From NCBI GenBank assembly GCA_038257245.1, contig JBBSJL010000002.1:5588-69587 (forward strand): 64,000 nucleotides of DNA. Direction: 5' to 3'. Of this stretch, positions 1 to 57,916 are shown in pieces; position 1 is the first letter of the stretch; every line of letters starts with the position of its first letter. This stretch comes from Candidatus Saccharimonadales bacterium (lineage in GTDB: Bacteria; Patescibacteriota; Saccharimonadia; Saccharimonadales; JACQNP01). The notes beneath the pieces were generated by a model that was not told the origin of the DNA, made no database searches, and saw only the letters and a program-made list of their open reading frames with translations. A program made the position numbers and the translations under genes.

Positions 1-1251
1 GCCGGCAACAATAACTGATCGTCCAGAATAATCAACACGCTTCCCAAGCAAGTTCTGTCTGAAACGACCTTGTTTACCTTTTAACATGTCACTAAGGCTT
101 TTTAGCCGTCTTCGTTGCCCGGTTGCAGCAACAGCACGACCTGAACGGGCACTATTATTATCAATAAGTGCATCGACGGCTTCCTGGAGCATTCGTTGTT
201 CATTGCGCCTGATCACCTCTGGGGCATTTAGTTCGATCAGTTTCTTAAGTCGGTTATTACGATTGATGACACGTCTATATAGGTCATTTAGGTCACTAGT
301 TGCAAATCGTCCACCAGTTAACTGAACCATCGGCCTTAAGTCTGGAGGAATTACTGGCAATACTGATAGACACATGCTGTTCGGTTTAATCCCTGCTCGT
401 TGCATGCTTTCGAGTAATCTTAGTCTCTTGGTAATCTTCTTTTTTCGTTGACCTTTCACTTCTTCTGACTCTTTAGCTAGATCGCTAATGAGCTGTTCTA
501 GGTCGATAGTATCTAGTAAGTCCTTGATTGAAGATCCGCCCATGCCGACTTCAACTAAACTTCTTAGTTCATCGGGTAAGTTTCGATAGTCTGCCTCAGA
601 GATAAGATTTAGTCTAGCAAGCATTGCAACTTGCGCACTAAATTCTTCGAACTCTTCTGTGATTTCTTCGATTTCTTTGGTTTGCATTTCTGCCAAAGTT
701 TTGACATTTGCATCTTCTTTGTTGGCTTCTCCTTCGTATCGTGATTTTATCGCTTCTTGTGCAGCATTATATTCTGCCTCTTTGTCAGCCAACGTCTTAT
801 CACGTTTATCGGAATCTACCGATTTAATTATATAACTTGCGAAGTACGCAACCCTTTCAAGGTTCTTAACTGTTAAGCCTAGTAGGAGCCCTACTGCTGA
901 GGGTGCACCCCGAAGAAACCAAATATGTGCCACTGGTGATGCGAGGGTAATATGACCCATACGCTCACGACGCACAATTGATTTTGTGACAAGTTCGCCT
1001 TTTTTATCAACTGCTGCTTCGCGTGAACGAACACCTTTGTATTTAGCATCATGGGGGTTAATGTCTTTTACGGGACCAAATATTCTTTCGCAAAATAGCC
1101 CGTCTCTCTCTGGTTTTTGAGTTCGATAGTTGATAGTTTCTGGTTTTGTTACTTCACCATGACTCCAATCAAGAATATCATCGCTGCTGGCAACCGCTAA
1201 CCTCACAGCTTCAAAATCTGCAATATCTGTTCCTTGTGAATACCGTCTCAT
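1..1251 (-). CDS. rpoC: DNA-directed RNA polymerase subunit beta-prime, N-terminal 417 codons (continues beyond window start)
   Basis: Absent from the ORF track because it has no in-window stop. My minus-strand translation from ATG 1251..1249 gives [60 protein letters not shown]...HIWFLRG. At the window edge it reads [20 protein letters not shown]. Both are hallmark beta-prime motifs. The ATG overlaps the rpoB TAA (TAATG), matching the canonical rpoB-rpoC order. Confidence 0.93.
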
Positions 1252-4200
1252 TATGCTGTCTCCTTTTCTTCTTCAATTGCAGATGGAACATCTTTGGTAT
1301 CGCCATCATTATCATCTATGACTGTTACATGCGCAGAAGATTCACTCAGGTCCATTACTTCAAACTCGTCCAATGCTGCGTCTTCCGTAACGTCTACGTC
1401 TGAAGCTAACGGTGCTGGTACATCTATATCTGATAAATGTTCAGATTCATCCTTAATGTTTTCAGCCAATACTTCTTCAGCATCAACTAGTTCGTCATGC
1501 GCCACAAGATCAACTTTCAAACCAAGGCCTTGTAGTTCTTTGACGAGAACGTTAAAGCTTTCAGGTACTTTTGGACCAACAATCTCTGTTTGTTTAATTA
1601 TTGATTCGTAGGCTTTTGATCGTCCGTAAACATCGTCAGACTTAATAGTTAACATTTCCTGAAGCGTATTCGCTGCACCATATGCTTCTAGTGCCCATAC
1701 TTCCATTTCGCCAAATCGTTGGCCACCATTTTGGGCTTTACCACCTAGAGGTTGTTGAGTAACCATAGTGTATGGTCCTGTCGACCTAGCATGTATCTTG
1801 TCAGCAATCATGTGATTTAGCTTAATCATATACATACTACCTACGGTTGTTAACTCATCAAACGCCTCACCTGTACGGCCATCAAATAGCTGCTGTTTAC
1901 CATCAGCTGGTAGCCCTGCTTCCTTTAGAAGTTCTTGGATTTTTTCTGATTGGACACCGTTGAATGACGGACTAGCCACTTTCATGCCCAACGCCTTTGC
2001 AGCCATACCAAGGTGTGTTTCAAACAACTGACCAATATTCATACGGCTAGGTACACCTAGAGGGTTTAGTACTATATCGACTGGCTCACCAGTCGCTGTA
2101 AACGGCATATCTTCAACTGGCAATACTCGAGCGATTACACCTTTGTTACCATGTCGTCCACCAAGTTTATCGCCAACTGATATCTTTCGCATCTGGGCTA
2201 CAAAAACTTGAATTTGCATGATTACACCAGCTTTTAGGTCGTGACCATTTTCTTTTGAGAAAATTTTAACACCAACGACTTTACCGTGTTTACCGTTTGG
2301 CATTCTCTGTGAAGTGTCACGTACTTCTTTAGCTTTTTCGCCAAAGATTGCACGCAATAGCCTCTCTTCACTACTTAGCTCTTGTTCGCCCTTAGGAGTA
2401 ATCTTACCGACTAATATATCGCCAGGATGAACTTCTGCACCAATTCGAACAACTCCTTCGTCATCTAAATGTCTTAGAGCATCTTCAGCAACGTTAGGTA
2501 TATCACGCGTAACAATCTCCGGGCCCAATTTTGTTTCTCTAACTTCGACCATGAAGTCAACAATATGTATAGATGTTAAGGTATCGTCCTCTACTAATTT
2601 TCGCGATACAATTATGGCATCTTCAAAGTTATATCCTGCCCATGGCATAAATGCCACGCTAAGATCACGTCCAAGTGCCAATTCACCGTCAGCGACTGAC
2701 ATTCCTTCGATAATCGGATCTCCAGCCTTAAGTTTGTCACCCGTGCTAACTATGACTTTTTGATTTATAGAACTTCCTTCGTTGCTACGAATAAAGTGTT
2801 GTGGTTTATAGCTCACAAGTCCTGATTTGTACTTAACAACTACTTCATCACCCGTGGCTTTTGTGACTTCACCAGCCTGCTCAGCAACAATAAGCTGACC
2901 ACTATTTTGAGCGACAACTTCTTCTAAACCCGTACCAACAATTGGCGACTGTGGGTTAATTAGCGGTACAGCTTGACGTTGTTGGTTGCTACCCATAAGT
3001 GAACGGTACACGTAGTTCTTTTCAATAAATGGGATTAAACCAGCGCTTGATCCAATAATTTGCTTCTTCGAGGCATCGACATGAGTTACATCGTCAGCGT
3101 CAACTTCTCCAGCTTTCAAGTGACTTCGGGCTGATACACGTTCTTGGATAAAGTTACCGTTTTTGTCATAGGGCTCACTAGCACTAGCAATCACTGCTGA
3201 TTCTTCAGCTGCTGCATCTAGGTATATGACATCGTCAGTTACCACAGCCTTTACTGGCCAAGTTACTTGGGACTTAATTGTGGCAAGTTTTTTTGCGGAC
3301 ACTGCAGAGATTTTATCTCCTGATTTAACAATAACTTTCCCTTTTTCGTCTTCAAGATTTACAGAAGCAATATGACCAATAGCATCTTTAGCGGTTACTG
3401 CATTAATAACCTTTTTGTATGGAGTTTCAATAAACCCGTAATCGTTGATCCTTGCATAGCTAGAAAGATTTAGTACCAAACCGATGTTGGCGCCTTCGGG
3501 TGTTTCAACAGCACAAATTCTTCCATAGTGTGTTGCGTGCGCATCTCTAACTTCAAATCCCGCGCGTTCACGGCTAAGACCACCTGGGCCCATTGAGCTT
3601 AGACGTCTTTTGTGTGCTAGCTCACTTAAAGGATTAATCTGATCCATGAATTGCGAAAGCTGTGAACTAGCAAAGAATTCTCGAACAGCGGCAACAATTG
3701 GTCGTGCGTTAATAAGTTGAGCTGGTGTTACTGTTTCAATTTCACACATACTCATTCTGTCTTTGGTATTTCGTTCCATTCGGAGTAATCCGATTCGGAA
3801 TTGACGCTGCACAAGTTCGCCAACCAACTTAACTCGCCGGTTAGCCAACGAATCAATGTCATCAGCAGGTTCCTGGGTATTATTTAATCGGATAATTTCA
3901 GCAATTATTGCGATTAGATCTTCAAGTCGCATTACGCGGTTTTCGATGGTATTCGGAAGATCGATATCAAGTCGTTTATTCAACTTGTAGCGTCCAACAC
4001 GACTAAAATCAAAGCGTTTGTAGTTATAGAACATATTCTCGATAAGACTTCGAGCGTTTTCGACTGTTGCAAGATCACCAGGTCGTAGACGTCGATAGAC
4101 CTCTATCAATGCTTCATTTGTACCTTTGCTAGGGTCTTTATCTAAAGTTGCTTGAATATAATTAAATGATCCTTGGTCTACGTGTTTGAAGTGGTCCCTC

Positions 4201-4844
4201 ATTTGAGCCTCGCTGACACCAAGTGCTCTTAAGAGTGTTGTTACAGCTATTTTTCGTTTGCGGTCAATCTTTACGAATAACGCGCCGTTAGCAGCTGTTT
4301 CAAACTCTAACCACGCACCGCGTCCAGGAATAACTTTAGCTCCATAAATGCTCTTTGTACCCTGAAGGTCAGATGTAAAGAAAACACCAGCAGATCGTAT
4401 CAGCTGAGACACAACCACACGCTCAGCGCCGTTAATTACAAACGTCCCACGGTTAGTCATCCAGGGATAGTCACCAAGGTAAATTTCTTGGTCTTTAACT
4501 TCGCCAGTTACTTTATTTGTTAGCTCAACAACCGCCTTTAATGGCGCGTCGTAGCTTACATTGTTTTCTCGAGCTTCGTCTTCTGTTATTTTTGGTGCTT
4601 CAAAGTGATAGTCTTTGAATTTTAATGATAATTTTGTTGATGTGTAGTCATCTATCGGACTAATTTCAGCCAATAATTCCCCAAGACCTTCTTCGACAAA
4701 CCATTGAAATGACCTGTTTTGATGATCCACCAAATTTGGCATGTCAATAATTTCATCGTTGTCGGTGAAAAATTGCCTTTTTGATTGTTTTTTTAAAGTA
4801 CTTGCATTTGGACTGCTTTTTGCCATATAAAGCTTAACTCCCAC
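1251..4844 (-). CDS. rpoB: DNA-directed RNA polymerase subunit beta
   Basis: 1197-aa ORF with beta-subunit motifs ([46 protein letters not shown]). The track start is GTG 4844. ATG 4826 (MAKSS...) preceded by GGGAG is the more likely start. Acidic C-terminal tail. Confidence 0.97.
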
Positions 4845-5000: not shown

Positions 5001-5600
5001 TTAGGAATTGACTATAACTTTGTCCACAATGCCGTATTTCTTGGCTTCGTCTGCTGTCATCCAATAGTCACGTTCCATGTCTTCTTGAATTTTCTTAACA
5101 GTTTGACCGGTGTTTTTAGCCATAATCTCATTTAACTGTCGTTTGATTCTAAGTGACTCTTTCAAGTCAATCTCCATATCGGTAACTTTTCCTCTAGTAC
5201 CTGAAGACGGCTGGTGCACCATAACTGTAGAGTTCGGCAGTATAAATCTCTTTCCTTTTTTACCACTACTTAGCAGAAATGCTGCTGCAGAAGCCTGTAC
5301 ACCTATTCCAACTGTTTGAATATCGCTCTTAACAAATTGAATCGTGTCGTAAATAGCAAGCGCATCATAAACTGACCCACCAGGGCTATTTATATATAAA
5401 GAAATGTCTTTTTTGTTATCCTCATTATCCAAGAACAGTAGTTGAGCAACTATCAAATTTGCAGTGTGTTCATTTACATCCGATCCTAAGAATATAATGC
5501 GGTCTTTGAGCAGCCTGGAGTAGATATCAAATGCACGTTCAACACGTCCGTCGGTTTCTATTACTGTTGGTATCAATACAGAGTTAATTGGTTTGTTCAT
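5001..5600 (-). CDS. clpP: ATP-dependent Clp protease proteolytic subunit
   Basis: 199-aa ORF with typical ClpP blocks ([29 protein letters not shown]). Sits in the canonical tig-clpP position. Confidence 0.95.
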
Positions 5601-5607
5601 ACAGCCC

Positions 5608-5635
5608 AGTATATCAATTTATTAGCACTCGTCAA
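5608..5635 (-). promoter_or_regulatory. clpP promoter (TTGACG-16-TGaTATACT), 7 nt before the ATG
   Basis: Minus strand reads TTGACG (5635..5630), a 16-nt spacer, then TGa-TATACT (5616..5608), then gggctgt and ATG at 5600. No Shine-Dalgarno is visible. The promoter is embedded in the CIRCE palindrome. Confidence 0.5.
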
Positions 5636-5648
5636 GTAAGAGTGCTAA
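5622..5648. promoter_or_regulatory. CIRCE inverted repeat (HrcA operator), perfect consensus
   Basis: Sequence is TTAGCACTC-gtcaagtaa-GAGTGCTAA. It matches the CIRCE consensus TTAGCACTC-N9-GAGTGCTAA at all 18 arm positions. Confidence 0.8.
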
Positions 5649-5662
5649 TAATATCTTTCTCG

Positions 5663-6946
5663 CTATTTCGCTGAGAAGCTAACTAATAGAGCCAAGGTTT
5701 TTTCGGTTACCAACCTCGAGGCAATATCATTTTTGCTTTCTGGCTTATCTAGCTCGGCCTGCATGGCCACATCTTTGTATTGTGTCTTGAGTTGCACAAT
5801 TCTATTATCGACCTCTTCCATAGTCAGATCGATTTTTTCAATTTCAGAAATTTCAGAGAGCACTAAACTTGCTTTAACGCGCTCCTCGGCCTGAGTGGCA
5901 ATATCGCCTCTTAGGAATTCTTCTTCAGTTAAGCTTTCACCTTCCAGGTATTCTGGGAATGTCTGGCCACGATACGTTAAGTTCTTCTTAAATTCGTCCA
6001 CCATTCGCTTTATTTGGTCTTCTATGAGAATTTTTGGAATAGCTACTTTAGATTTTTGCGTAATTTTTCTTACGAGTTCTGATTCGTAGTCACGTTGAGT
6101 TTGTTGATCACGCTCAATCTTCAGCTGACGTTTAATATCATCCTTCAGCTGTTTGAGAGATTCGAACGGTCCGGCCTTTTTGGCAAAGTCATCATCAAGT
6201 TTTGGTTCGGTTACTTCTTGAATTTTCGTTACGTTAACTGAGAAAGTTACTTTTTTGTTGGCGAGAGTTTTAACGCCATACTCTTTCGGAAAAGTTAGTG
6301 TAAATGTTGTTTCGTCTCCCGACTTAAGCCCAATGAGATTCTTTTCGAACCCTGGGATAAACGTGTCGCTACCCAAAACTAACGGGTAATCCTTGCCGTC
6401 GGCACCTTTAATCGGCTCATTGTTGTCATTGACGCCTTTAAAATCAATCCAAACTTGATCACCATCTTTGGCTGCTCGTTTAACATCAGACTTTTCTGCC
6501 ATTCGCTTTTGTAAGGAATTAAGTACTTCTTTTACCTCGTCAGTTGAAATCACGACCTCAGATTTGGTTAGTTTGACTTTTTTATAGTCAGGTAGCAATA
6601 TTTTGCCTACAACTGGAACTTTTGCCTCAAATTCCAATGTTTCGAATGGCACAAATTTTGTAATAGAAATCTCGGGGTTATTAACTGGTCGCAACTGTTC
6701 TGAGCGTATAGCTTGAGGATATATTTGATTGATTGCTTCCTCTAGGAACTCTGATTGTAGCGCCGCTTGGTCTATTTGTTTTTCTACTAATGCCTGCGGG
6801 GCTTTGCCTTCACGAAAGCCAGTAACTTTAACATTTTTTGATAGCTTTTTAATTACTGTGTCTTTGATTAGCTCTAATTCCTTAGTGTCGGAGACAACCG
6901 TAATTACAGCATCTGTTTCTTGTGAGATAGTGTGTTTAACTTGCAT
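5663..6946 (-). CDS. tig: Trigger factor
   Basis: ORF 5663..6976. It shows trigger-factor architecture: N-terminal ribosome-binding motif (GFREGKAP), an FKBP-like middle domain and a helical C-terminus. The track start is TTG 6976. ATG 6946 (MQVKHT...) fits the usual N-terminus. Confidence 0.92.
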   Translation of the reverse strand: MQVKHTISQETDAVITVVSDTKELELIKDTVIKKLSKNVKVTGFREGKAPQALVEKQIDQAALQSEFLEEAINQIYPQAIRSEQLRPVNNPEISITKFVPFETLEFEAKVPVVGKILLPDYKKVKLTKSEVVISTDEVKEVLNSLQKRMAEKSDVKRAAKDGDQVWIDFKGVNDNNEPIKGADGKDYPLVLGSDTFIPGFEKNLIGLKSGDETTFTLTFPKEYGVKTLANKKVTFSVNVTKIQEVTEPKLDDDFAKKAGPFESLKQLKDDIKRQLKIERDQQTQRDYESELVRKITQKSKVAIPKILIEDQIKRMVDEFKKNLTYRGQTFPEYLEGESLTEEEFLRGDIATQAEERVKASLVLSEISEIEKIDLTMEEVDNRIVQLKTQYKDVAMQAELDKPESKNDIASRLVTEKTLALLVSFSAK

Positions 6947-6954
6947 AGATAACC

Positions 6955-6963
6955 ACTCTAACA
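6955..6963 (-). promoter_or_regulatory. Extended -10 (TGtTAGAGT), 8 nt upstream of the tig ATG
   Basis: Minus strand reads TGt-TAGAGT-ggttatct-ATG. This is ambiguous, because GAGTGG could instead serve as a weak SD. Confidence 0.3.
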
Positions 6964-6993
6964 GATAAGGCAACAATTTACTAGGCTACATAA

Positions 6994-7446
6994 TCAGAAC
7001 CGCAATATTTGTGATAAAACGATAAACATAGCTGAGAACCAAACTAGCTCTGATGTAGCATTACGCCAGGATTCATGTTCAGCCCACTGAATTTTTGCAT
7101 GAAAGCGCCGAATTGGCCCCATTGGCTTGTTTTTCTTGCCACTTAATTCCGATATCCATCTTGGTAACCACATAAGATCAGGGCTAGCGCAGGCAATACC
7201 ACTCGCTATAATCAGCAACCAATTGGCTGGCTGTAGGGCGGCAACAACTATTAGTAGCGCCATGGCTGCACCCATGTCAGAACTTAGAACATAAAGAAAC
7301 TTGGTGTCAGTGTGTTTTCCTAAGCCATAGTGGGGCAAAGCATCTAAGACAAAATGCGCCATGAGGGCTAGTGGTATTGCGACAATTGGGTTTACCACAG
7401 CAGCCCCCACAACCATGCCAGTAATGACGTGGTTAGTTGCTGTCAT
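6994..7446 (-). CDS. Small polytopic membrane protein, YdjM/DUF457-like putative metal-dependent hydrolase
   Basis: 150 aa with several hydrophobic helices and conserved-looking His/Asp positions (NHVITG, HFVLDALPHYG). Its start directly abuts the hisS stop (7446/7447). The family assignment is tentative. Confidence 0.45.
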   Translation of the reverse strand: MTATNHVITGMVVGAAVVNPIVAIPLALMAHFVLDALPHYGLGKHTDTKFLYVLSSDMGAAMALLIVVAALQPANWLLIIASGIACASPDLMWLPRWISELSGKKNKPMGPIRRFHAKIQWAEHESWRNATSELVWFSAMFIVLSQILRF

Positions 7447-8724
7447 TTATTTACTTAGGGCCTTGATTATTTGCTGAACACTCAATACCTGTGAGGTGCC
7501 TGTCGTTAAATCTTTTAGTCCGTATTTCTTTTGCTCGAGTTCTGAATCACCAATAAAGATCACATATTTTAAGCCTTGTTTATCTGCGTTTTTTATCTGT
7601 TTATCTATCTTTCTGCCAGTTGAATCGACTGAAACATTAACGCCAGAGTCACGTAGTTCTGAAACCACTTCTTGTGCTCTTATGTAATTATCACCAATCA
7701 CACAAACAGCCACATCTGTTTCTGGCGCTATATCTGGCAATAATTTGTTAGTTTCAAGAAAATTTTGTAAAGTAACATCCCCCATGCCGAAGCCAACTGT
7801 TGGGATTGGTTCAACACCGAATAGGCCAACCAAACCGTCGAAGCGTCCGCCTCCAAACATTGACCTGTTATTAGTAGGGCTTGTATCAAAGACCTCGAAA
7901 ACTATATCTGTGTAGTAATCGAAACCCCGCATAAGCGATATGTCAAACACTGCATTATCAATTCCAATTTTTTGCAGTGAATCTAATACATTAACTAGCT
8001 CTTTGACCGAGCTAAGCTCTTTTAGTTCTTCCGGTAACTCGGTAATGTCACTTATTTGCAACAGCTTCGTGATCTGCGGAGCATTAGTGCCAACTAAATC
8101 TTTTAGTTGTTGCTTAAATTTGTCTGCAGGCAATTTATTCATTCGATCAATTAGCTTAACCAGGTCGCGTACGACTCGTTTATCAAGCTTAAAGTAACCA
8201 GAGAGCACGCTGTCGACTAATTTTCGACTGTTTAGCCTGATCTGATACGTGTCGGTCACAGCACCATACTCTTTCAGTATGCTGTCAGCAATTTGGATCA
8301 TTTCAAGCTCTGCCGAGACATTATCAATACCAAATACATCGACATTGAGTTGCCAGTGTTCACGCAACCGACCACGTTGTGGCCGCTCATATCTCCATAA
8401 GTTTGGTATAGAGTACCAGCGGGCTGGGTAGGCCAGCTCTTGGCGCTTGCCAGCCACCATTCTGGATACGGTTGGCGTCATTTCGGGCCTAATAACAACT
8501 TGACGACCACCCCTGTCTTCGAACTGATAGGTCTGTTCGTTTACGATCTCTTCGCCTGATTTAGCCGTATAAAGATCTAGCGGCTCAAGGATTGGGGCAT
8601 CGTACTCTTGGTAACCGTATTTTTCTACTACGCGCCGAAGAACAGCAAACATATATTTCTGAATTCGTTTATCCTCAGGATAAAAATCCCGAGCCCCTTT
8701 GTATGGTTGTGTTGAAAGACTCAT
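7447..8724 (-). CDS. hisS: Histidine--tRNA ligase (full length, with anticodon-binding domain)
   Basis: Class II HisRS motifs are present: motif 2 WRYERPQRGRLREHWQ and motif 3 GGGRFDGL. A C-terminal anticodon-binding-type domain is present (VAVCVIGD...KYVIFIGDSE). GAGG SD lies upstream. Confidence 0.92.
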   Translation of the reverse strand: MSLSTQPYKGARDFYPEDKRIQKYMFAVLRRVVEKYGYQEYDAPILEPLDLYTAKSGEEIVNEQTYQFEDRGGRQVVIRPEMTPTVSRMVAGKRQELAYPARWYSIPNLWRYERPQRGRLREHWQLNVDVFGIDNVSAELEMIQIADSILKEYGAVTDTYQIRLNSRKLVDSVLSGYFKLDKRVVRDLVKLIDRMNKLPADKFKQQLKDLVGTNAPQITKLLQISDITELPEELKELSSVKELVNVLDSLQKIGIDNAVFDISLMRGFDYYTDIVFEVFDTSPTNNRSMFGGGRFDGLVGLFGVEPIPTVGFGMGDVTLQNFLETNKLLPDIAPETDVAVCVIGDNYIRAQEVVSELRDSGVNVSVDSTGRKIDKQIKNADKQGLKYVIFIGDSELEQKKYGLKDLTTGTSQVLSVQQIIKALSK

Positions 8725-10746: not shown

Positions 10747-10803
10747 CTAACCGATCAGCTCCGGCGACATATGTACATGATGTAGATTAGTTAGATAAAG
10801 CAT
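10747..10803 (-). other. Candidate leaderless 18-codon leader ORF MLYLTNLHHVHMSPELIG
   Basis: The ATG (10803..10801) lies 7 nt after a consensus -10. Three of codons 8-11 are His (CAT CAT GTA CAT). TAG stop at 10749..10747, 22 nt before the terminator stem. Speculative. Confidence 0.25.
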
Positions 10804-10810
10804 AATCACT

Positions 10811-10839
10811 ATTATATTCTTCTTACGTTTATTTGTCAA
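10811..10839 (-). promoter_or_regulatory. Consensus sigma70 promoter TTGACA-17-TATAAT
   Basis: Minus strand reads TTGACA (10839..10834), a 17-nt spacer, then TATAAT (10816..10811). All 12 hexamer positions match consensus with optimal spacing. It sits immediately downstream of the tRNA-Leu 3' end. Confidence 0.6.
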
Positions 10840-21626: not shown

Positions 21627-22598
21627 CTACTCCGTATTTATTGTCTTTGGTCGACTATCAATAGCATTTATTAGTTCATTTTCTTGTGTGACGATTTTAT
21701 TATACTCAGCTAGAATATTATTGTATTGATCGATCATAGACGATACGACCTGGACCTCTGCGTTATATGCGTTCACCCGATTGTTGTAACTAACAACTTG
21801 GATATTAAATGAGGTCGGATTAGCATTATGCCTACGGCTCTCCAGATCTTTAAACTCAACAGACAATGCCAAAGCTTCAGTTTCTAGCTGTTTGTTCTTG
21901 CTATCAATCTGGATCTTCAGTTTCTCAAGTTGTTGCTTATTTTGCTCGGCTTTGGATTCTAGCTCACTGAATGCTTTTTCATACTGCTGAGAAAGTTTTA
22001 CAACTATTGACCTGTCTTTAAAATATCGGCTGTAATATTCTTCGAGTTCAGGTGATATATCCGCAACTTCTGTGGCTATGATTGAATGTAACTCGTTAGG
22101 AACCACCGAAGGGTCCTTATCATGATATGATTTGACCGTAGCGATAATTCGATCGTCTTTTACATTGCGTAACTCTTGTGCCGTAAGTTTATCAATTCTT
22201 TCTCTATCCTTACTGGATAGTCGTTCGTATGCAGCGTGAAGCATTTCGTGTGCCGCTGTTACTTCCTCTACGCCATTTAGCCGTTCATCCTTGACGTCAT
22301 ATAGATATATACCCGCAGGTGATATAAAACATCCTAAAACTATACTTTGTTCGCTATCACTGCAACTTTGATTAAACTCAGCCCTACCCTGCAAGGTCGG
22401 CCAGTTAACATAGAACAATTGTTTGCCGTCGTCAGTCATTGTAGTGGCCGTAGCTAGCTGAGCTATTTCGGACGAAGGGATATAATCTCTGAGTCTAATC
22501 CAATCAAAAATCGTTTGTTTTTGCCAGAATCCAAATGCAATAACAATTAGTAAACTGAATAATACCGTGATTGATGCTGTCTGTTTTTTAGGTTTCAC
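21627..22598 (-). CDS. Membrane-anchored protein with HExxH motif and C-terminal coiled coil (putative zinc metallopeptidase-like)
   Basis: 323 aa with an N-terminal TM helix, AAHEMLHAAY (HExxH), then a long heptad-like K/E/Q-rich segment. I do not recognise the family. Confidence 0.4.
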   Translation of the reverse strand: MKPKKQTASITVLFSLLIVIAFGFWQKQTIFDWIRLRDYIPSSEIAQLATATTMTDDGKQLFYVNWPTLQGRAEFNQSCSDSEQSIVLGCFISPAGIYLYDVKDERLNGVEEVTAAHEMLHAAYERLSSKDRERIDKLTAQELRNVKDDRIIATVKSYHDKDPSVVPNELHSIIATEVADISPELEEYYSRYFKDRSIVVKLSQQYEKAFSELESKAEQNKQQLEKLKIQIDSKNKQLETEALALSVEFKDLESRRHNANPTSFNIQVVSYNNRVNAYNAEVQVVSSMIDQYNNILAEYNKIVTQENELINAIDSRPKTINTE

Positions 22599-22616: not shown

Positions 22617-25088
22617 CTACTCAGCTGCAAGGTCGTAAACTAGTTCCTTGTTTCGTACGCCAATCTTTAGAATAGTACCTTTTTGGTAATTATCTTCTAG
22701 AATTTTCAGTGATATATGGTCCTCGATCGTATCTTGTATTAGTCGACGAAGTGGGCGTGCGCCATTAAGTGGGTCGTAGCCATGCTCTAGCAAGTACTGT
22801 TTGGCCGGTGAAGTTACTTTTATACCTATGCCGTGTTTCACTAGTCTCGTTTTCAGTTCGTCAATTTGTAAATCCATAATCTGCATTACATTCTTTTTGG
22901 TCAATGCACGAAATACCACTGTCTTATCAAGACGATTAAGCAGCTCGGGTCTTAGCATCTTTTTTAGTTCTTCTTGTACTTTTTCCTGATTGCTAGCATG
23001 CACAGAATCTAGGTTACTTTCATCGCGTTTAGTAGCCACGTGGAACCCCAGTTGCGCTTCTTTTTGTAACTTTTCAGCTCCGAGATTACTGGTCATTATT
23101 ATAATTGTGTTGGTAAAATCAATTTTTCGGCCTTTTGCATCTGTGAGTACGCCATCCTCTAGTATCTGTAATAACATGTTGAATATTTCTGGGTGAGCCT
23201 TTTCTATTTCGTCAAACAGAACAAGGCTGTATGGCTGGCGCCTGATCTTATCAGTTAACTGACCGCCCTCGTCGTAACCAACGTAACCGGCTGGGGCACC
23301 GACTAATCTAGATGCGGTATGTCGTTCGCTAAATTCACTCATATCAATTTTTACTAACGAATCCTCGTTACCGAAAAATTCTCTAGATAAGACACGAGCT
23401 AATTCGGTCTTGCCAACTCCTGTTGGGCCCAAAAATATAAATGAGCCTATTGGACGCTTGCTGCTACCCACTCCTGCGCGGCTTCGACGGATAGCCTTTG
23501 AAACAGCGGATACCGCTTCATCCTGACCAATAACATGTTTGCTGATAATTTTCTCTAGATTTAGTAGATATTTAGCTTCTGATTTGATGACCTTGGTTAC
23601 TGGGACACCTGTGATCCTTGCAACAACTTCTGCAACATCATCATTGGTCATTATTAGGCTTCTAGCTGTTTTACCATTTTTTTCTAACTCGGCTAGACGT
23701 TTATTTATTTGGCTTGCTCGTTGCTTGTATTCAGCAGCCTTTTCATAGTCTTCGTTGTCAACCGCATCTTCTATGCGATTATTGACTAGTTTTAGTTCTT
23801 TCTGGAGTTTACGGATCTCTGGTGGAGTTTTTCCTTTATCAATCCTTATATGTGCGGCAGTTTCGTCAAGAAGATCAATTGCCTTGTCAGGCATAAACCT
23901 ATCGTTAATATACCTTTTGGAAAGAGTGACGGTATCTTCTAGAACTTCGTCACTAATAGTCACTCCATGAAATTCTTCGTAATGTTTTCGTAGGCCTTTC
24001 AAAATTGCCAGTGTCTCCGGCAGGGTTGCTTCAGGTACTTGTATAGGCTGAAAACGTCTTTCGAGTGCTGCGTCTTTCTCGATGTGTTTCGTGTATTCTG
24101 TAGTTGTAGTAGCCCCTATGAGCTGGATCTTACCTCTAGCCAGGGCAGGTTTAAGGATATTGCCTGCATCCATCGCTCCTTCTGCAGCACCTGCACCCAC
24201 AATTAAATGTAATTCATCTATAAATACAATACATTTCTTATCATTTTCGAGTTCGGACATTACCTTTTTAAGGCGTTCTTCGAATTCACCGCGATACTTA
24301 GTGCCAGCAATCATCCCAGCAAGATCAAGCATAATTATTCGTTTATCTAACAAACTGTCAGGGACATCTTCGGTAATAATTCTTTGGGCCAATCCCTCGA
24401 CAATTGCTGTCTTTCCAACCCCAGGTTCACCAATAAGAACTGGGTTGTTTTTAGTACGCCTATTCAAAATAGTTACGACTCGTCTTATTTGAGCTTCTCG
24501 GCCAACTACGGGATCAAGTTTTTTAGCTCGAGCCTCAGCGGTTAAGTCTGTGCCAAAAAAGTCTAGAGCAGTTTTCCGTTGTTTTTTTGTTCGTTTGTGC
24601 GATCCAGTGCTGTTGTTATTGTATTGTTGCCTATTTAGGAACTGTTCCAGCTCTGTGATTAAACGATCGACATTGATGTTCATATCTTTGAGTAATGTAG
24701 TTGCACGGGCATTTTTTTGTGTCAAAATACTGTACAAAATATGTTCGGTCCCACAAAATTCTTGGCTGAATTCCTGGGCAAATTCAAAAGCCATTCGAAG
24801 TGTTAGCTTAGCTGTTTCGCTTAGCCCCTTACCTCCGTAATTTATAACGAGTGTCTTCGGTGTTAGATTTAAAGCTAATCTAGCTCGATCTAGAGTAACA
24901 CCTGCTTCTTCCAGCACTTTAGAACCAATACTACTATCTTGTGCAAGGACCCCGAGCAATAAATGTTCAGTACCAATATATGCACTACCAAAGCTTCTTG
25001 CTATAGCATCCGCATGCTTGATACTTGCCTGAGCATTGTCCGTCAGGTTGTTTAAAAAATCATTAAAGTCTGGCGAGTTAGGCATCAT
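22617..25088 (-). CDS. clpC: ATP-dependent Clp protease ATP-binding subunit ClpC
   Basis: 823 aa with a double Clp_N repeat, two AAA+ modules ([16 protein letters not shown]), a UVR-like linker and sensor motifs. Confidence 0.93.
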
Positions 25089-25134
25089 ATTTACTAAACC
25101 CCTTTATCTGCGTGTTTTTGCTTCGCATACTCAC

Positions 25135-25164
25135 ATAATACACAAACTAGCACTCGCGAGTCAA
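25135..25164 (-). promoter_or_regulatory. clpC operon promoter (TTGACT-18-TATTAT)
   Basis: Minus strand reads TTGACT (25164..25159, inside the CIRCE loop), an 18-nt spacer, then TATTAT (25140..25135). A leader of about 45 nt with AAGGGG SD follows. Confidence 0.45.
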
Positions 25165-25173
25165 GAGTGCTAG
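25147..25173. promoter_or_regulatory. CIRCE inverted repeat (HrcA operator), near-consensus
   Basis: Sequence is CTAGCACTC-gcgagtcaa-GAGTGCTAG. It matches the consensus at 16 of 18 arm positions and differs only at the two outermost bases, which stay complementary to each other. Confidence 0.72.
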
Positions 25174-25196
25174 TTTTTCATATACCTAGTTTGTTT

Positions 25197-34165: not shown

Positions 34166-35302
34166 ATGACTAATTTTGGAGATGAAGCTTTAAGAAAACA
34201 CAAAGAACTAAAAGGTAAAATTTCTATTTCACTAAAAGATCCGTTAGACACACAGGATAAATTGAGTATCTACTACACTCCAGGCGTTGCTAAGGTATCA
34301 AGTTATGTTGCTAAAAATCCATCTGAGACACGCGACTATACGTGGCTAAACAATACCGTGGCAGTTATTAGCGATGGGTCCGCCGTACTCGGGCTAGGGA
34401 ATATTGGGCCCTATGGAGCATTGCCAGTCATGGAAGGAAAAGCCATGTTATTCAAACATTTTGCCAATATCGATGCAGTACCGATCATTCTTGATGTTCA
34501 CACTGCTGACGAAATAGTAAATACTGTGGCAGCCATAGCACCGAGTTTTGGTGGCATTAATCTAGAAGATATTGCCGCACCACTTTGTTTTGAAATCGAA
34601 AACAGATTAAAAGCAAAGCTCGATATCCCTGTCTTTCATGACGATCAACACGGTACCGCTATTGTTGTTCTAGCTGGGCTTATCAATTCTATGAAAATTA
34701 CTGGGAAGACTCTTTCAGATACTAAAGTCGTGGTTGTTGGTGCTGGAGCAGCGGGAACGGCCATTATTAAACTCTTACACGTATACGCTCAGCCTAACAT
34801 TCTTGCCATAGATAGTAAGGGCATTGTTAGTGGGTCGCGAGATGACCTTAACGATGAAAAGCAAAAGCTGCTCGAGTTTACCAATCCAAACAATGTTTCA
34901 GGTTCGCTTAGTGATGCGCTAATAGGCGCAGATATATTCATTGGCGTATCTAAAGGTGGCTTACTGACAACAGACATGATAAAAACAATGGCTACAAATC
35001 CTATAATCTTTGCGATGGCCAATCCTGATCCGGAAATATTACCAGATGATGCTAAACATGCAGGGGTGGCAATAATAGCAACCGGCAGAAGTGATTTTCC
35101 AAATCAAGTCAATAATGCGTTGGCCTTCCCAGGAATTTTCCGTGGTGCTTTAGATAACAAAGTTACTGCAATCACAGATCAACACAAGATAGCCTCAGCC
35201 GAGGTAATAGCCAACCTTGTAGAAAACCCAACCCCAGATACAATCATACCTTCTGTTTTAGATGATAGATTAGTCCCCGAGATAGCTAAAGTTATTATCT
35301 AG
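34166..35302 (+). CDS. NAD(P)-dependent malic enzyme (short, ~380-aa type)
   Basis: Motifs YTPGVA, SDGSAVLGLGNIG, FHDDQHGTAIV and GAGAAG are present. There is no PTA-like C-terminal domain. Confidence 0.9.
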   Translation: MTNFGDEALRKHKELKGKISISLKDPLDTQDKLSIYYTPGVAKVSSYVAKNPSETRDYTWLNNTVAVISDGSAVLGLGNIGPYGALPVMEGKAMLFKHFANIDAVPIILDVHTADEIVNTVAAIAPSFGGINLEDIAAPLCFEIENRLKAKLDIPVFHDDQHGTAIVVLAGLINSMKITGKTLSDTKVVVVGAGAAGTAIIKLLHVYAQPNILAIDSKGIVSGSRDDLNDEKQKLLEFTNPNNVSGSLSDALIGADIFIGVSKGGLLTTDMIKTMATNPIIFAMANPDPEILPDDAKHAGVAIIATGRSDFPNQVNNALAFPGIFRGALDNKVTAITDQHKIASAEVIANLVENPTPDTIIPSVLDDRLVPEIAKVII

Positions 35303-36912
35303 CCTACAACCCTGTATACTTCTTCCAAAGTAGTCAGGCCAGCACATACCTTCAGAATTCCATCTTGTAGCATAGTGCTCATCCCGCTCTTTACAGCAGC
35401 GGCTTCTATTTGTTGAGCAGACAGCGTCTTTTGTCCAGATTCTAGCAATTCCCTAATTGGTCCTGTCATTATAAACTGTTCTCTTAGTGGAACCTGTCCA
35501 ATGTAGCCAAATGGGTTTTCTGCTGAGCTACCGGATTTGTACAAAGTTATGTTATCGATATCTGGACGCTCAACACCCTCTGGCAAAGTATTTATAACTT
35601 CCCACAACTTTGCTTTGATTGCATCATCTGGTTGATAAGGTTGTTTCGTGGTCTCATCTAATAGCCGTACTAATCTCTGTGCCATTACCAACCTAATAGC
35701 TGACACAAACAATGGGTTTTCACCAACGACGTCCATAATTCTTGTTAGCGCAGCCGATGCAGACGATGCATGGAAAGTTGATAGAACCAAATGCCCGGTC
35801 AATGAAGCTTGTAGTGCAGTTTTTGCGGTGTCCATGTCACGAATCTCACCAACCATAACAATATCTGGGTCTAAACGAAGAATTGCCCTAAGTTTATTTG
35901 CAAACGAGCTACCGTCAGAAGCCCCTTGACCTGTAACTGGTATCTGAGTAATCCCCGGAAACTGATATTCAACTGGGTCTTCGACTGTAATAATCTTACG
36001 CTCTTCAGTATTTAATGTGTTGAGCATAGAGTACAATGTCGTCGTTTTTCCTGAGCCTGTAGGGCCAACGACCATGACTAGTCCACTCGGTTTCTCGATG
36101 ATATCGTCTACAATCTCACGTTCGTGCTCGGATAGCTTCAGTCTGTCTAGGTTATACATCGACGCGTCCATATTGAACAATCTCATAACAACATCCATGC
36201 CATTTACAGTCGGAACTGATTCTAGACGCAAGTTTATGTCCACTTCGTTCCCGTCTTCCATTTGAATATGCTGTGATATATGTCCTTGTTGAGCATCAGG
36301 TGATGAGGTTGATATATTACCTGCACTAGCTACAGCCGATATCAGTATTCTGTACTTGTCGATACTCAATCGAGCTATTGGGTGAAGAACTCCGTCAATT
36401 CTAAATCTTATCCGAACGTGGTCGCGCTGAGTTTCGACATGAATGTCAGATGAATTTAATTTATGGGCTTGCTGGACTAGATATGCCAGCATATCACCTG
36501 CTTTGACTTGTTCTAGTACTGACGAAACGTTCTGAATGTTATCGTCATTATTAGATTTGTTAACTGATATGTCGTGGTAGACAACTTTTTTGGGAGGATC
36601 GTATAAATGTATATACTCTCGGTAGCCATTATCTGAAATCAATGCAAAATTGACCTTTTGGTCTAGGAATTTATTACGTAAGTTGGTCATTGTTTGCTGA
36701 GATGTCGTATTGGTAACTCCAAAAACTATACTGTGCTCGGTAGACTTAACTGGTATGACACGTGAGCTCTTGATATCAGCTACTGGCATTAGATCTTTAT
36801 ACAGTTCACGTTGCTCTGGAGGCGTAACGCTAGTATCGTGGTAATCTAGACTGAGAATCCGGGCTCGTCGCTCAGTATTCATTTCTTCTTCTTTACGTGC
36901 GTCTTGACTCAT
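35299..36912 (-). CDS. pilB: GspE/PilB-family type II/IV secretion (type IV pilus assembly) ATPase
   Basis: 537 aa with Walker A (GPTGSGKTTT), Asp box, Walker B (DPDIVMVGEIRD) and His box (GHLVLSTFH). Confidence 0.87.
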   Translation of the reverse strand: MSQDARKEEEMNTERRARILSLDYHDTSVTPPEQRELYKDLMPVADIKSSRVIPVKSTEHSIVFGVTNTTSQQTMTNLRNKFLDQKVNFALISDNGYREYIHLYDPPKKVVYHDISVNKSNNDDNIQNVSSVLEQVKAGDMLAYLVQQAHKLNSSDIHVETQRDHVRIRFRIDGVLHPIARLSIDKYRILISAVASAGNISTSSPDAQQGHISQHIQMEDGNEVDINLRLESVPTVNGMDVVMRLFNMDASMYNLDRLKLSEHEREIVDDIIEKPSGLVMVVGPTGSGKTTTLYSMLNTLNTEERKIITVEDPVEYQFPGITQIPVTGQGASDGSSFANKLRAILRLDPDIVMVGEIRDMDTAKTALQASLTGHLVLSTFHASSASAALTRIMDVVGENPLFVSAIRLVMAQRLVRLLDETTKQPYQPDDAIKAKLWEVINTLPEGVERPDIDNITLYKSGSSAENPFGYIGQVPLREQFIMTGPIRELLESGQKTLSAQQIEAAAVKSGMSTMLQDGILKVCAGLTTLEEVYRVVG

Positions 36913-52039: not shown

Positions 52040-53284
52040 CTACAGCATAATAGGTTCACTCGACTGATGTTCAATCTGTAAATTAACTTGCGATCTTAGG
52101 CCTGAATATCTTAGATACCTCATGAATAATTCGTTCCACAAACTGTCTTTCATATGTCCATTAAAATGATCGCCGTAAGGTGTTTTATTGATATAATTTG
52201 CAGCCATGTCCATTAGATTAAAGCTAATTTGTCTACCGTCCTCTAGAACGCCAACGTAGTCCATATCGTGCCAAAAATGTAGTGCTGGCTCAATTTTGAA
52301 TAATATCTCCTCGGCCTTACGCCAGAACAAATCTTCTGGTTGTAAATGCGGTTCGAAAAATTCAGGATGGTCAGTATTATGTGATCCATAATACTGGTGT
52401 AGAACTCGCCAATGTACATGTTGGCCAGCCATTTGAACATGACGCGCCGGGTCATCAATAATAGTTCTTACAAGAGTGTGGCCAAAGCCAGCCCTGACCT
52501 GATGATGCTTAAAGTAGGTACTGTAAGTTCTAATTTCATTTAAGTAATAAAGAATTCTAGGTATAAGTGCGATGGATATCCCCGTAAGGTCATTAACTGG
52601 TAGTGGCAATATTGCAACTACCCCCATTTCCTTGAGGTGAGTAATGTTTTGGTTATGGCTCCTAGCATAAGTAAGTGACTTTCCACCCCACTTTTTACCA
52701 TCTAATAACAGTAAGTTAGCTTGCCTATTCTCAAAATCTGATGGCTCTAGCCTTATATATTTTTCTATGAATGCCCTTTGCCATTTACCAGTTTCTAAAA
52801 TACGAATTCCTACCATAATTTCATCTATTGATTCACGCTTCAACATTGAATCAATAGATCTGTATCCTAACTGTTTCATAACATTTTTGGGGGGTGTAGC
52901 TTTCAGGAGAGATTTGGCAACGCTGTGTTTAAGTCCCCAGACAGTTTTAGGGATATTTATTGTATCGATCAATTTCTTAATGCGTGGCAGTAAATCTGCT
53001 ACGTCACTAGGATTACTCCCACCCATTCTCTTAACTAAAAATCTGTCGTGAAGCCCTATTAACCCTAGAAGAGCACTATAGAGTTCTTCACCTGTCGTAT
53101 CGTCTGGATCAAGCCCCAAAGCTCGCATACGAGTGTATACTTTTGAGCTTACTTCCGTAGCAAGGCGTATATCAACACTAGGATTGCCACTCGCTGATTC
53201 AAGCTGTTGAACCATGAGAGCAAAAAGTTGATCCGAAACCCCCACCAGTTGGGACAACGATTTAGACATAATTACCTTAAGCAT
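52040..53284 (-). CDS. Hypothetical protein (414 aa), no recognisable family
   Basis: A long intact ORF with a His-rich central region (HVHWRVLHQYYGSHNTDHPEFFEPH). The start is ATG 53284 or ATG 53269. Confidence 0.5.
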   Translation of the reverse strand: MLKVIMSKSLSQLVGVSDQLFALMVQQLESASGNPSVDIRLATEVSSKVYTRMRALGLDPDDTTGEELYSALLGLIGLHDRFLVKRMGGSNPSDVADLLPRIKKLIDTINIPKTVWGLKHSVAKSLLKATPPKNVMKQLGYRSIDSMLKRESIDEIMVGIRILETGKWQRAFIEKYIRLEPSDFENRQANLLLLDGKKWGGKSLTYARSHNQNITHLKEMGVVAILPLPVNDLTGISIALIPRILYYLNEIRTYSTYFKHHQVRAGFGHTLVRTIIDDPARHVQMAGQHVHWRVLHQYYGSHNTDHPEFFEPHLQPEDLFWRKAEEILFKIEPALHFWHDMDYVGVLEDGRQISFNLMDMAANYINKTPYGDHFNGHMKDSLWNELFMRYLRYSGLRSQVNLQIEHQSSEPIML

Positions 53285-56085: not shown

Positions 56086-57060
56086 CTAATTTGACACCAT
56101 ATCATGTGCCGTTAATATTATATTCTTGGACGTCAAACCAAAATGTTCCAGTAGCTCATCTGGATTACCTGACTCGCCAAATCGATCTTTGATGCCAATT
56201 CGTTTAATAGGAACCGGGAACTCTTCGCCAAGCAATTCTGATATTGCCCCGCCAAGCCCCCCATTAATCTGAGCTTCTTCGATTGTTATAACCATTTTAG
56301 TTTTTTTTACGCTCTGCAATATTGTAACGGCATCCAGTGGTTTTATTGTTGGGCAATGTATTACTTCTGCATCGATTCCATCTTTAAACAATTTTTCAGC
56401 TGCTACCATAGCGTGATACGTCATAGTGCCAGTTGAAATTAGTGTTATGTCGTCACCTTTTGTATAAACATATGCTTGTCCTATTTCAAATGGGGTTTTT
56501 TGTGTAGTAAGAATCGGGGTTGCCTCTCTTGCAAGCCTAATATAGTTTGGGCGAGAATCATTTGACATTGCGATCGTCATTTTGTGTGCTTCTATACTGT
56601 CCCCAGGTGCCATAACTACCATATTAGGCAAGGATCTCATCAGGGCAATATCTTCGAGCATCTGATGGGTGGCACCATCCTTGCCTGTATAAAGGCCTGC
56701 GTGGGCACCAACAATTTTTACTGGTCTGTCATTAAGGCAAATCGTTGTTCTAATTTGCTCCCAGTTACGCCCTGGACTAAATGCAGCATAGCTACTGACG
56801 AATGGTATTTTACCCATTGCCGCCAAGCCAGAACCAACGGTAACCAAATTCTGTTCCGCAACACCAACTTCTATAAATCGTTCAGGAAACTCACTAGCAA
56901 AGTGGCTAATTTGAGTCGAATCTGTCAAATCTGCACAAGCTGCCACTACTTGGTCGTTCAATCTTCCTGCTTCTAATAGTCCGGTTCCAAAACCTTTTCT
57001 ATTAGGCTCTTTGGCAATATCCTTAGCCATAATATTATCAATCAGATGCAGATTACTCAT
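56086..57060 (-). CDS. Transketolase, C-terminal (pyrimidine-binding) subunit
   Basis: ORF 56086..57099 with a VGVAEQNLVTVGSGLA motif. The start ATG 57060 (MSNLHL) overlaps the upstream subunit's stop by 8 nt (ATGAGTAA). Confidence 0.9.
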   Translation of the reverse strand: MSNLHLIDNIMAKDIAKEPNRKGFGTGLLEAGRLNDQVVAACADLTDSTQISHFASEFPERFIEVGVAEQNLVTVGSGLAAMGKIPFVSSYAAFSPGRNWEQIRTTICLNDRPVKIVGAHAGLYTGKDGATHQMLEDIALMRSLPNMVVMAPGDSIEAHKMTIAMSNDSRPNYIRLAREATPILTTQKTPFEIGQAYVYTKGDDITLISTGTMTYHAMVAAEKLFKDGIDAEVIHCPTIKPLDAVTILQSVKKTKMVITIEEAQINGGLGGAISELLGEEFPVPIKRIGIKDRFGESGNPDELLEHFGLTSKNIILTAHDMVSN

Positions 57061-57916
57061 GTTCACTCCTAATTTTACCGCGAAGTGTACGCAGCTCATG
57101 TAGTGCTACTTTTGCCTGTTCTTTATCTGGCTGGGCACCGTGCCATTTGAAATCATACTCCATAAAATCAACACCCCTGCCTGGTACAGTATGAGCAATA
57201 ATCACCGTCGGCTTTTCAATGATTGCCCTTGCCATTGCACAGGCATCGATTATTGCCTCAATGTTATTGCCGTCAATTTCAATAACATGCCAGCCAAAGG
57301 CATGCCATTTGGCGCTCAGGTCTTCTAGAGGCATCACTGATTCGGTTGGACCATCTATTTGTATGTTATTTCTATCGATTATTCCTATTATATTGCTAAG
57401 CTTATACTTGCTGGCTAGCATCGCTGCTTCCCAAATATTGCCTTCATTAAGTTCGCCATCACCCATTACCGTATATATCCAACGATGATTATCTTTATTA
57501 ATATTCATCGCTAGCGCCATGCCGCATGCCTGGCTTAAACCACACCCCAAGGGGCCACTCGTGTTTTCCAGTCCTGGCAACTTTGTGCGTTCTGGGTGAC
57601 CCTGCAAACGCGAACCAAATTGTCTTAGAGTAAGTAATTCTTTTTTATCAAAATACCCGGAATGAGCCATTGCGGCATATTGAATGGGTACACAATGCCC
57701 GTTGCTCAGTAACAAAATATCTCGTTGGTCCCAATCAGGTTTTTTCGGATCATGCTTTAATACATCGAAATATAATGCCGTAAAAATATCCGTTAAACCC
57801 AACGGGCCTGCACTATGACCGCTACCGGCATGCTCTAGCATTTTAATAATATCTTGACGTATGTCGTTAGCTTTTAATTCAAGCTCTTTATTGGAGAGTG
57901 ATTTATTGTCTACCAT
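57053..57916 (-). CDS. Transketolase, N-terminal (TPP-binding) subunit
   Basis: 287 aa with GSGHSAGPLG and GDGELNEGNIWEA motifs. Confidence 0.9.
   Translation of the reverse strand: MVDNKSLSNKELELKANDIRQDIIKMLEHAGSGHSAGPLGLTDIFTALYFDVLKHDPKKPDWDQRDILLLSNGHCVPIQYAAMAHSGYFDKKELLTLRQFGSRLQGHPERTKLPGLENTSGPLGCGLSQACGMALAMNINKDNHRWIYTVMGDGELNEGNIWEAAMLASKYKLSNIIGIIDRNNIQIDGPTESVMPLEDLSAKWHAFGWHVIEIDGNNIEAIIDACAMARAIIEKPTVIIAHTVPGRGVDFMEYDFKWHGAQPDKEQAKVALHELRTLRGKIRSEHE

Follow-up and report, generated by a model that had tools for sequence, protein, structure and literature searches.

A 64,000-nt stretch of contig JBBSJL010000002.1 from a Candidatus Saccharimonadales bacterium, referred to as the window throughout this work, was analysed around clpP, the gene for the proteolytic subunit of the ATP-dependent Clp protease. 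Directly upstream of clpP lies a perfect copy of CIRCE (an inverted repeat that controls the expression of chaperones), the operator recognized by the repressor HrcA, with a -35 box located inside it. Most likely, this palindrome is a true CIRCE for a repressor of the HrcA family that is fused to a sigma-70-type clpP promoter, and HrcA would repress clpP by occluding the -35 box. The elements of the site and the genes surrounding it are the following (nt, nucleotides; aa, amino acids; ORF, open reading frame):

5622..5648, palindrome without strand assignment: CIRCE operator, arms TTAGCACTC-N9-GAGTGCTAA with 0 mismatches, spacer on the clpP strand TTACTTGAC
5630..5635, minus strand: -35 hexamer of clpP, TTGACG, formed by the last five spacer nucleotides of the CIRCE and the G with which the right arm begins
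5608..5616, minus strand: extended -10 element of clpP, TGaTATACT (TG at 5616..5615, TATACT at 5613..5608), 16 nt past the -35 hexamer
5598..5600, minus strand: ATG of clpP, 7 nt past the -10 box and predicted 5' end of a leaderless mRNA
5001..5600, minus strand: clpP, 199 aa, ATP-dependent Clp protease proteolytic subunit (NCBIfam PRK00277, 297.7 bits)
1251..4844, minus strand: rpoB, which follows clpP
5663..6976, minus strand: tig (trigger factor), the gene upstream of clpP (TIGR00115, 354.6 bits)
6994..7446, minus strand: ORF of 150 aa between hisS and tig, without Pfam or NCBIfam match
7447..8724, minus strand: hisS

The plus strand at 5622..5648 reads TTAGCACTCGTCAAGTAAGAGTGCTAA, which splits into TTAGCACTC-GTCAAGTAA-GAGTGCTAA and matches the CIRCE arms at 18/18 positions around a 9-nt spacer. 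When the 64-kb window was searched for CIRCE with up to three mismatches, two matches were obtained; the mean in shuffled sequences was 0.03, and none of 100 shuffles reached two. In a generic promoter scan of 5300..7300 the clpP site ranked top among the sigma-70-like sites (10/12 matches plus the upstream TG). The seven nucleotides separating the -10 box of clpP from the ATG are GGGCTGT (5607..5601, minus strand). Apart from the GGG 5-7 nt before the start codon, nothing upstream of the ATG resembles a Shine-Dalgarno (SD) sequence, and the predicted transcription start is located at the ATG or adjoins it. In the NCBIfam alignment residues 5-198 of ClpP correspond to profile positions 4-197; because the profile aligns from residue 5 to position 4, the ATG at 5600 was taken as the true N-terminus of the protein. 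On the minus strand the order is hisS, the 150-aa ORF, tig, the palindrome, clpP and rpoB, with 14 nt between the tig stop codon (ORF end at 5663) and the palindrome. A previous interpretation made from the letters of the window alone (the sequence-only reading) had claimed an 18/18 arm match with an N9 spacer, a minus-strand succession of TTGACG, 16 nt, TGaTATACT, 7 nt and the clpP ATG, the lack of an SD sequence, and the 14-nt distance from the tig stop codon. Direct inspection confirmed this anatomy in all parts.

Conservation of the site was determined in 80 related loci derived from a ClpP protein scan, with one genome per species; including the window, this gives a set of 81 loci. Nearly all relatives are labelled Candidatus Saccharibacteria, Saccharimonadales or Saccharimonas, and their ClpP proteins are 74-90% identical to that of the window, which places the window in a TM7/Saccharimonadales genome. 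A CIRCE with up to three mismatches was present immediately upstream of clpP in 80/80 species, and the inspection of clpP upstream regions in relatives that the sequence-only reading had suggested as a check thus found the palindrome to be kept throughout. TTGAC occurs inside the CIRCE in 79/81 loci and does so in two registers: in 47 loci it occupies spacer positions 1-5 (register 0), and in 32 loci, as in the window, it occupies spacer positions 5-9 and abuts the G of the right arm (register 4). One locus has an intermediate register. In either register TTGAC is followed by TAnnnT at a distance of 17 nt (45 loci), 18 nt (31 loci) or 16 nt (four loci), with TATACT as the most frequent -10 hexamer. 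Counted over 77 relatives and the window, TAnnnT at 16-18 nt from TTGAC occurs in 78/80 loci. As the -10 box is displaced by four bases along with TTGAC, the two elements behave in the way predicted for a real -35/-10 pair.

The position of the start codon fits the same promoter. In 56/81 loci it is found 5-10 nt past the -10 box (31 of them at exactly 7 nt), and only two of these 56 short-gap loci contain an SD-like 4-mer in the gap. By comparison, in 19/81 loci the start codon is preceded by a leader of 14 nt or more that contains an SD-like motif, in many cases AGGAG, AAGGAG or GGAGG. This split into short gaps without and long leaders with an SD motif is as expected for a real transcription start. 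The comparison provides strong evidence that clpP mRNAs, including that of the window, are leaderless in most of the lineage, with a predicted start about 7 nt past the -10 box. The earlier proposal that the operator would occlude the -35 box and spacer, rather than lie downstream of the transcription start, is well supported by these features: TTGAC within the spacer, a -10 box that moves with the register, and a start codon about 7 nt further on.

The gene order tig-clpP-rpoB is kept in about 77 of the 80 related loci, while the CIRCE begins anywhere between -4 and about 1200 nt from the tig stop codon. In one relative (L025) an inverted rpoB is located upstream, and the CIRCE with its promoter cassette is nevertheless found just before clpP. 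It is rpoB, not clpX, that comes after clpP.

The second CIRCE match of the window is located between nusA and clpC, the gene for an unfoldase of the type that partners ClpP:

25147..25173, palindrome without strand assignment: second CIRCE, CTAGCACTC-N9-GAGTGCTAG with 2 mismatches, spacer on the clpC strand TTGACTCGC
25135..25164, minus strand: clpC promoter, with the -35 hexamer TTGACT (25164..25159) in the CIRCE spacer, 18 nt, and the -10 hexamer TATTAT (25140..25135)
22617..25088, minus strand: clpC, AAA+ unfoldase of 823 aa (Pfam Clp_N, AAA, UVR, AAA_2 and ClpB_D2-small)

The window ClpC matches ClpC of Staphylococcus aureus, ClpC of Bacillus subtilis and ClpC1 of Mycobacterium tuberculosis end to end, and its middle domain is short and of the UVR type. 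Among the annotated ORFs of the window no clpX was found, and ClpC is the only Clp unfoldase seen there. The leader that follows the -10 box of clpC is about 45 nt long and contains the SD sequence AAAGGGG. Downstream of clpC are an ORF of 323 aa and then radA. The order nusA-CIRCE-clpC recurs in three Saccharibacteria-like metagenomic loci (L154, L138, L184); in two others (L198, L153) nusA lies just upstream of a CIRCE, and the next gene is not confirmed as clpC. An ATG located 6 nt past the -10 box of clpC opens an ORF of 16 codons (25078..25128, minus strand) that overlaps the clpC start; this ORF is probably coincidental, because it is not conserved in any of the three loci with confirmed gene order. 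Control of clpP and clpC by CtsR was considered and dropped, as a CtsR box (the tandem heptad RGTCAAANANRGTCAAA, up to three mismatches) was found neither in 5600-5700 nor in 25090-25200, and the count across the entire window was at chance level. Likewise, a screen of 20 small and mid-sized window ORFs showed no recognizable transcription factor or sigma factor.

Metagenomes were scanned with the pattern TTAGCACTC-TTGAC-N4-GAGTGCTAA, which yielded 120 loci (L081 to L200), and the first downstream ORFs were clustered. The products encoded downstream and the occurrence of a correctly spaced TAnnnT were as follows:

HrcA-like, 39 loci: TAnnnT in 34/37
DnaK, 24 loci: TAnnnT in 24/24
ClpB/C, 11 loci: TAnnnT in 10/11
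ClpP, eight loci: TAnnnT in 8/8
GroES, five loci: TAnnnT in 1/5
FmdB-like zinc ribbon, four loci: TAnnnT in 0/4
Hsp20, three loci (L107, L157, L172): TAnnnT in 2/3
DnaJ and GroEL, one locus each: TAnnnT not scored

The zinc-ribbon loci (L084, L087, L113, L140) are on high-GC contigs and combine a perfect CIRCE containing TTGAC with the lack of a properly spaced -10 box; they serve as an internal contrast. Their CIRCE may mark a different HrcA target in another phylum. At dnaK, tandem operators were observed, the first CIRCE holding the -35 box in its spacer and the second covering the predicted transcription start directly past the -10 box. The tandem arrangement is present in 23/24 dnaK loci (for example L081, L095, L096, L098, L109, L115, L142 and L149).

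Most of the metagenomic HrcA-like ORFs are 217-245 aa long and still match the C-terminal HrcA domain and the HrcA winged helix-turn-helix (wHTH) domain of Pfam. A profile built from 27 of these short ORFs retrieved at least 8000 relatives, and the best 120, which were examined, are all 231-252 aa long. Among these 120, two are labelled 'Candidatus Saccharimonadales bacterium' (P0046, P0069) and two 'Candidatus Saccharibacteria bacterium' (P0062, P0119) by NCBI, and other short HrcA proteins carry the NCBI label 'Patescibacteria group'. It is these labels that tie the metagenomic hrcA loci to Saccharibacteria; by their neighbouring genes they could not be linked, having no gene in common with the window or the clpP flanks. 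Overall, HrcA of the lineage measures 217-252 aa (about 235), compared to about 340 aa for the canonical protein. Five loci (L201 to L205) contain operons of the type CIRCE-hrcA-grpE-(x)-dnaK-(x)-dnaJ. In the first of them, an 809-kb contig of GCA_035247965.1 (L201), the hrcA gene encoding P0046 (L201:6001-6708) is preceded by CTAGCACTC-ttgactgat-GAGTGCTAG, TATCAT, 7 nt and the ATG, which is the same leaderless cassette as at clpP, and dnaK has a CIRCE of its own (L201:7232-7258). To judge from this arrangement, hrcA appears to be autoregulated via CIRCE and linked to grpE-dnaK-dnaJ. The leaderless layout thus occurs at hrcA (L201:5955-6003) as well as at clpP; since sister loci with longer leaders carry SD-like motifs, both modes of initiation coexist in the lineage.

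The profile of the short HrcA aligns to HrcA of Thermotoga maritima (PDB 1STZ) over residues 14-140 and 229-327; the approximately 88 residues in between are left out and would correspond to the inserted dimerising domain. Canonical HrcA, as in 1STZ, consists of a wHTH domain, a GAF-like domain and this inserted dimerising domain; the full three-domain architecture was not found in the short HrcA of the lineage. An AlphaFold2 model of P0046, with a moderate predicted local distance difference test score (pLDDT 69), contains the wHTH and, after it, a single alpha/beta domain. In a comparison of folds 1STZ ranked first (E = 7e-9), and IclR-type regulators, built of a wHTH and a GAF-like domain, came next.

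These data show the anatomy of the site, its conservation, the joint shift of the promoter elements and the occurrence of hrcA in the lineage; that HrcA binds and represses, that it depends on GroEL and where exactly clpP transcription starts are inferred from them. Because the -35 hexamer sits inside the 9-nt spacer of the operator, an HrcA dimer bound to both arms would shield the -35 box together with the adjoining half of the promoter spacer, keeping RNA polymerase off. In other bacteria the activity of HrcA is lost as GroEL is titrated away. When unfolded proteins build up, for example upon heat exposure, HrcA would likewise be expected to lose activity and the promoter to fire; transcription would then begin at or next to the ATG and produce a leaderless clpP mRNA. 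As clpC bears the same operator-promoter cassette, the ClpCP protease as a whole would be co-regulated with hrcA-grpE-dnaK-dnaJ, and the folding of proteins as well as their degradation is probably under a single small repressor. The sequence-only reading had proposed that Clp proteolysis is part of the HrcA regulon, and the proposal has gained support from the CIRCE at every clpP locus of the relatives, the CIRCE at clpC in the window and in relatives, the hrcA operon with the same operator and the lack of a CtsR box. A broader claim is put forward more tentatively, as a possibility: a minimal, two-domain HrcA without the inserted dimerising domain might be the single master regulator of DnaK/GrpE/DnaJ, Hsp20 and the full ClpCP protease in Saccharibacteria, and probably in much of the Patescibacteria (Candidate Phyla Radiation, CPR), acting through a compact cassette with the -35 box in the CIRCE spacer and often leaderless transcripts.

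Three other explanations of the palindrome were weighed. That it functions as an RNA or DNA structure, i.e. as terminator of tig or as an element of mRNA stability instead of a protein operator, might be suspected from the stable 12-bp stem into which its transcript would fold (z-score -4.7), from its location 14 nt past the tig stop codon in the window and from a T-rich tail that follows it in 21/81 loci. Yet a scan of 5300..7300 for intrinsic terminators revealed no terminator-like site, the window has no U-run (the tail reads TAAATTGA), and a search of the tig-clpP intergenic region against Rfam returned no known RNA family. When the 81 sites are compared, hardly any variation is seen at arm positions 2 and 4-9, and the flanks are almost devoid of information. 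Where the arms do vary, pairing is broken: pair 3/25 shows 20 A.C and nine G.T combinations and not a single compensated G-C pair, and pair 1/27 shows nine C.A combinations. Since this variation is non-compensatory, the site is selected as a sequence for recognition by a protein and not as a structure. The same sequence also precedes clpC, hrcA and dnaK in unrelated contexts. Because the arms are kept as sequence and the site tracks clpP rather than tig, whose stop codon lies at widely varying distances, a protein operator is favoured over a terminator, and a purely structural role is extremely unlikely. The suggestion of the sequence-only reading that tig may also be terminated by this hairpin was discarded, in view of the missing terminator site, the unpreserved pairing and the variable gap to tig.

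The two remaining explanations concern how, and by which protein, the operator acts. If clpP had no promoter of its own and were read from the hisS-orf-tig operon, HrcA bound to the CIRCE would merely stop read-through. Such a roadblock is compatible with the tight packing of hisS, the 150-aa ORF and tig on the same strand, with the lack of a terminator after tig, and with the situation described for Mycoplasma pneumoniae, where lon reportedly depends on the tig promoter and a CIRCE separates the two genes (PMC7737663). It does not account for the retention, in nearly all loci, of TTGAC and TAnnnT at 16-18 nt, which shift jointly between registers, nor for the intact cassette behind an inverted rpoB in L025. 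Furthermore, an internal AUG placed 5-10 nt past the -10 box and lacking an SD sequence, as in 56/81 loci, would be a poor site of translation in a read-through transcript. A roadblock as the only mode of control is thus very unlikely, but it could act on top of promoter occlusion, with bound HrcA additionally blocking read-through. As no terminator follows tig, read-through transcripts probably exist; these would carry the clpP AUG at an internal position with no SD sequence before it, and productive expression would come mainly from the operator-controlled promoter. Very unlikely, too, is the idea that another regulator binds the palindrome or that the short HrcA-like protein acts in some other way, be it as an activator or in response to a signal other than unfolding. 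The roughly 88 residues missing from HrcA of the lineage would be in keeping with it, and so would the absence of an obvious joint change of clp genes and chaperones in the Saccharibacteria strain TM7x. On the other hand, the arms represent the exact universal CIRCE consensus, and the short protein retains the wHTH and C-terminal Pfam domains of HrcA, with T. maritima HrcA as its best structural match. Its gene has the same cassette and sits in the hrcA-grpE-dnaK-dnaJ operon, and an operator over the -35 box fits repression, not activation.

Repression of clpP by a short HrcA through occlusion of the -35 box is the explanation we favour, and a number of observations that weigh against it are considered here together. 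No hrcA was detected with tblastn when 30 short HrcA proteins were used as queries against the window and the clpP flanks. The co-occurrence of hrcA and CIRCE-clpP was seen at the level of the order (Saccharimonadales) and not within one genome: comparison of the HrcA and ClpP match lists gave no contig with both hrcA and CIRCE-clpP. Among about 40 window ORFs annotated with NCBIfam or Pfam there was no hrcA, dnaK or groEL. Without the approximately 88 central residues, the dimerisation of the short HrcA and its dependence on GroEL may differ from the textbook model. Finally, in co-culture transcriptomes of TM7x most chaperones were higher at initial encounter, and clp genes were higher in stable symbiosis. 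A Clp ATPase (annotated as clpB, TM7x_03020) and clpP (TM7x_02110) rose together in stable symbiosis; this ambiguous pattern fits co-regulation of clp genes, while a simple single regulon is not evident from it.

The arrangement was compared with known systems. The operator TTAGCACTC-N9-GAGTGCTAA is identical to that of the HrcA/CIRCE system of B. subtilis, which controls the dnaK and groE operons, and in both cases the HrcA homologue is part of an autoregulated hrcA-grpE-dnaK-dnaJ operon. In B. subtilis CIRCE is positioned downstream of the transcription start. In Saccharibacteria, by contrast, the targets include clpP and clpC, the operator lies over the -35 box, the mRNA is predicted to be leaderless, and the repressor has about 235 instead of about 340 aa. 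In Streptococcus salivarius clpP is reported to be under dual control of CtsR and HrcA (Chastanet and Msadek 2003, a title cited in PMC3842655); there, clpP likewise belongs to the HrcA regulon. Unlike in that organism, CIRCE is the only recognizable operator at clpP in Saccharibacteria, no CtsR box being present, and it is kept in 80 species. The CtsR regulon of Firmicutes (ctsR-mcsA-mcsB-clpC, clpP, clpE) resembles the one proposed here in that clpP and clpC are under one heat-responsive repressor, and radA is located downstream of clpC. It differs in the operator and in the family of the repressor, and nusA, not ctsR-mcsAB, is upstream of clpC in the window.

A further parallel is offered by M. 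pneumoniae, in which tig and lon have a CIRCE between them. The HrcA regulon there comprises Lon, ClpB, PepA and Pip, and ClpP is absent from the protease repertoire given for this organism (PMC7737663). The regulons of M. pneumoniae and Mycoplasma genitalium share with that of Saccharibacteria the reduced genome, the control of both chaperones and ATP-dependent proteases by HrcA, and a CIRCE between tig and a protease gene. In contrast to M. pneumoniae, the protease in Saccharibacteria is ClpP and not Lon, and its gene is served by a promoter of its own that is fused to the operator. Delta-proteobacteria have CIRCE only at groESL, hrcA-dnaK and rpoH, whereas their clpP genes are preceded by sigma-32-type promoters (PMC545781). 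Given that there are precedents for the control of proteases by HrcA, the present finding is of limited surprise in this respect; two of them, clpP of S. salivarius and tig-CIRCE-lon of Mycoplasma, had been overlooked in the sequence-only reading. The canonical CIRCE and HrcA control of proteases are known, whereas the wiring, the operator-promoter architecture and the size of the repressor are specific to the lineage. As far as can be judged from sequence, the new elements would be a CIRCE as the sole recognizable operator at clpP and clpC, a -35 box in the spacer in two interchangeable registers, mostly leaderless transcripts and a truncated HrcA.

Further features of the window, which do not bear directly on the clp genes, were recorded:

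21627..22598, minus strand: the 323-aa ORF between clpC and radA, without Pfam or NCBIfam match
52040..53284, minus strand: ORF of 414 aa adjoining uvrB, without Pfam or NCBIfam match
35299..36912: pilus ATPase of the GspE/PilB type

Near hisG, a consensus succession of TTGACA, 17 nt, TATAAT, 7 nt and ATG was observed at 10801..10839 (minus strand); this ATG opens an ORF of only 18 codons, and the site is probably either a hisG promoter with a leader or a chance occurrence. At 56086..57916 (minus strand) two adjacent ORFs resemble a split transketolase, with rpiB, rpe and gapA nearby. The ORF at 56086..57099, corresponding to the C-terminal half, matches the C-terminal part of the transketolase profile, and only this half is annotated.

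In the literature searched by full text, no paper was found that deals with HrcA or CIRCE for Saccharibacteria, TM7, Patescibacteria or the CPR. Regulation in Patescibacteria has scarcely been explored, and the CIRCE at clpP and clpC provides a concrete, conserved regulon that is testable at the scale of the phylum in these ultra-small epibionts. One short repressor would couple the chaperones to the ClpCP protease. In the reduced genomes of Mollicutes, too, HrcA has taken over protease genes, and the parallel hints at a general way in which the control of stress responses becomes consolidated as genomes shrink. With a -35 box in the operator spacer, two interchangeable registers and leaderless mRNAs, the site is a clean natural fusion of operator and promoter, and in Saccharibacteria the cassette could be put to use for regulated expression. 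With the short HrcA the question arises how a repressor without the inserted domain would dimerise and sense GroEL. If a two-domain HrcA indeed acted as master regulator of chaperones and ClpCP, this would be the first reconstructed transcription-factor regulon of the lineage and would provide a stress-inducible promoter module.

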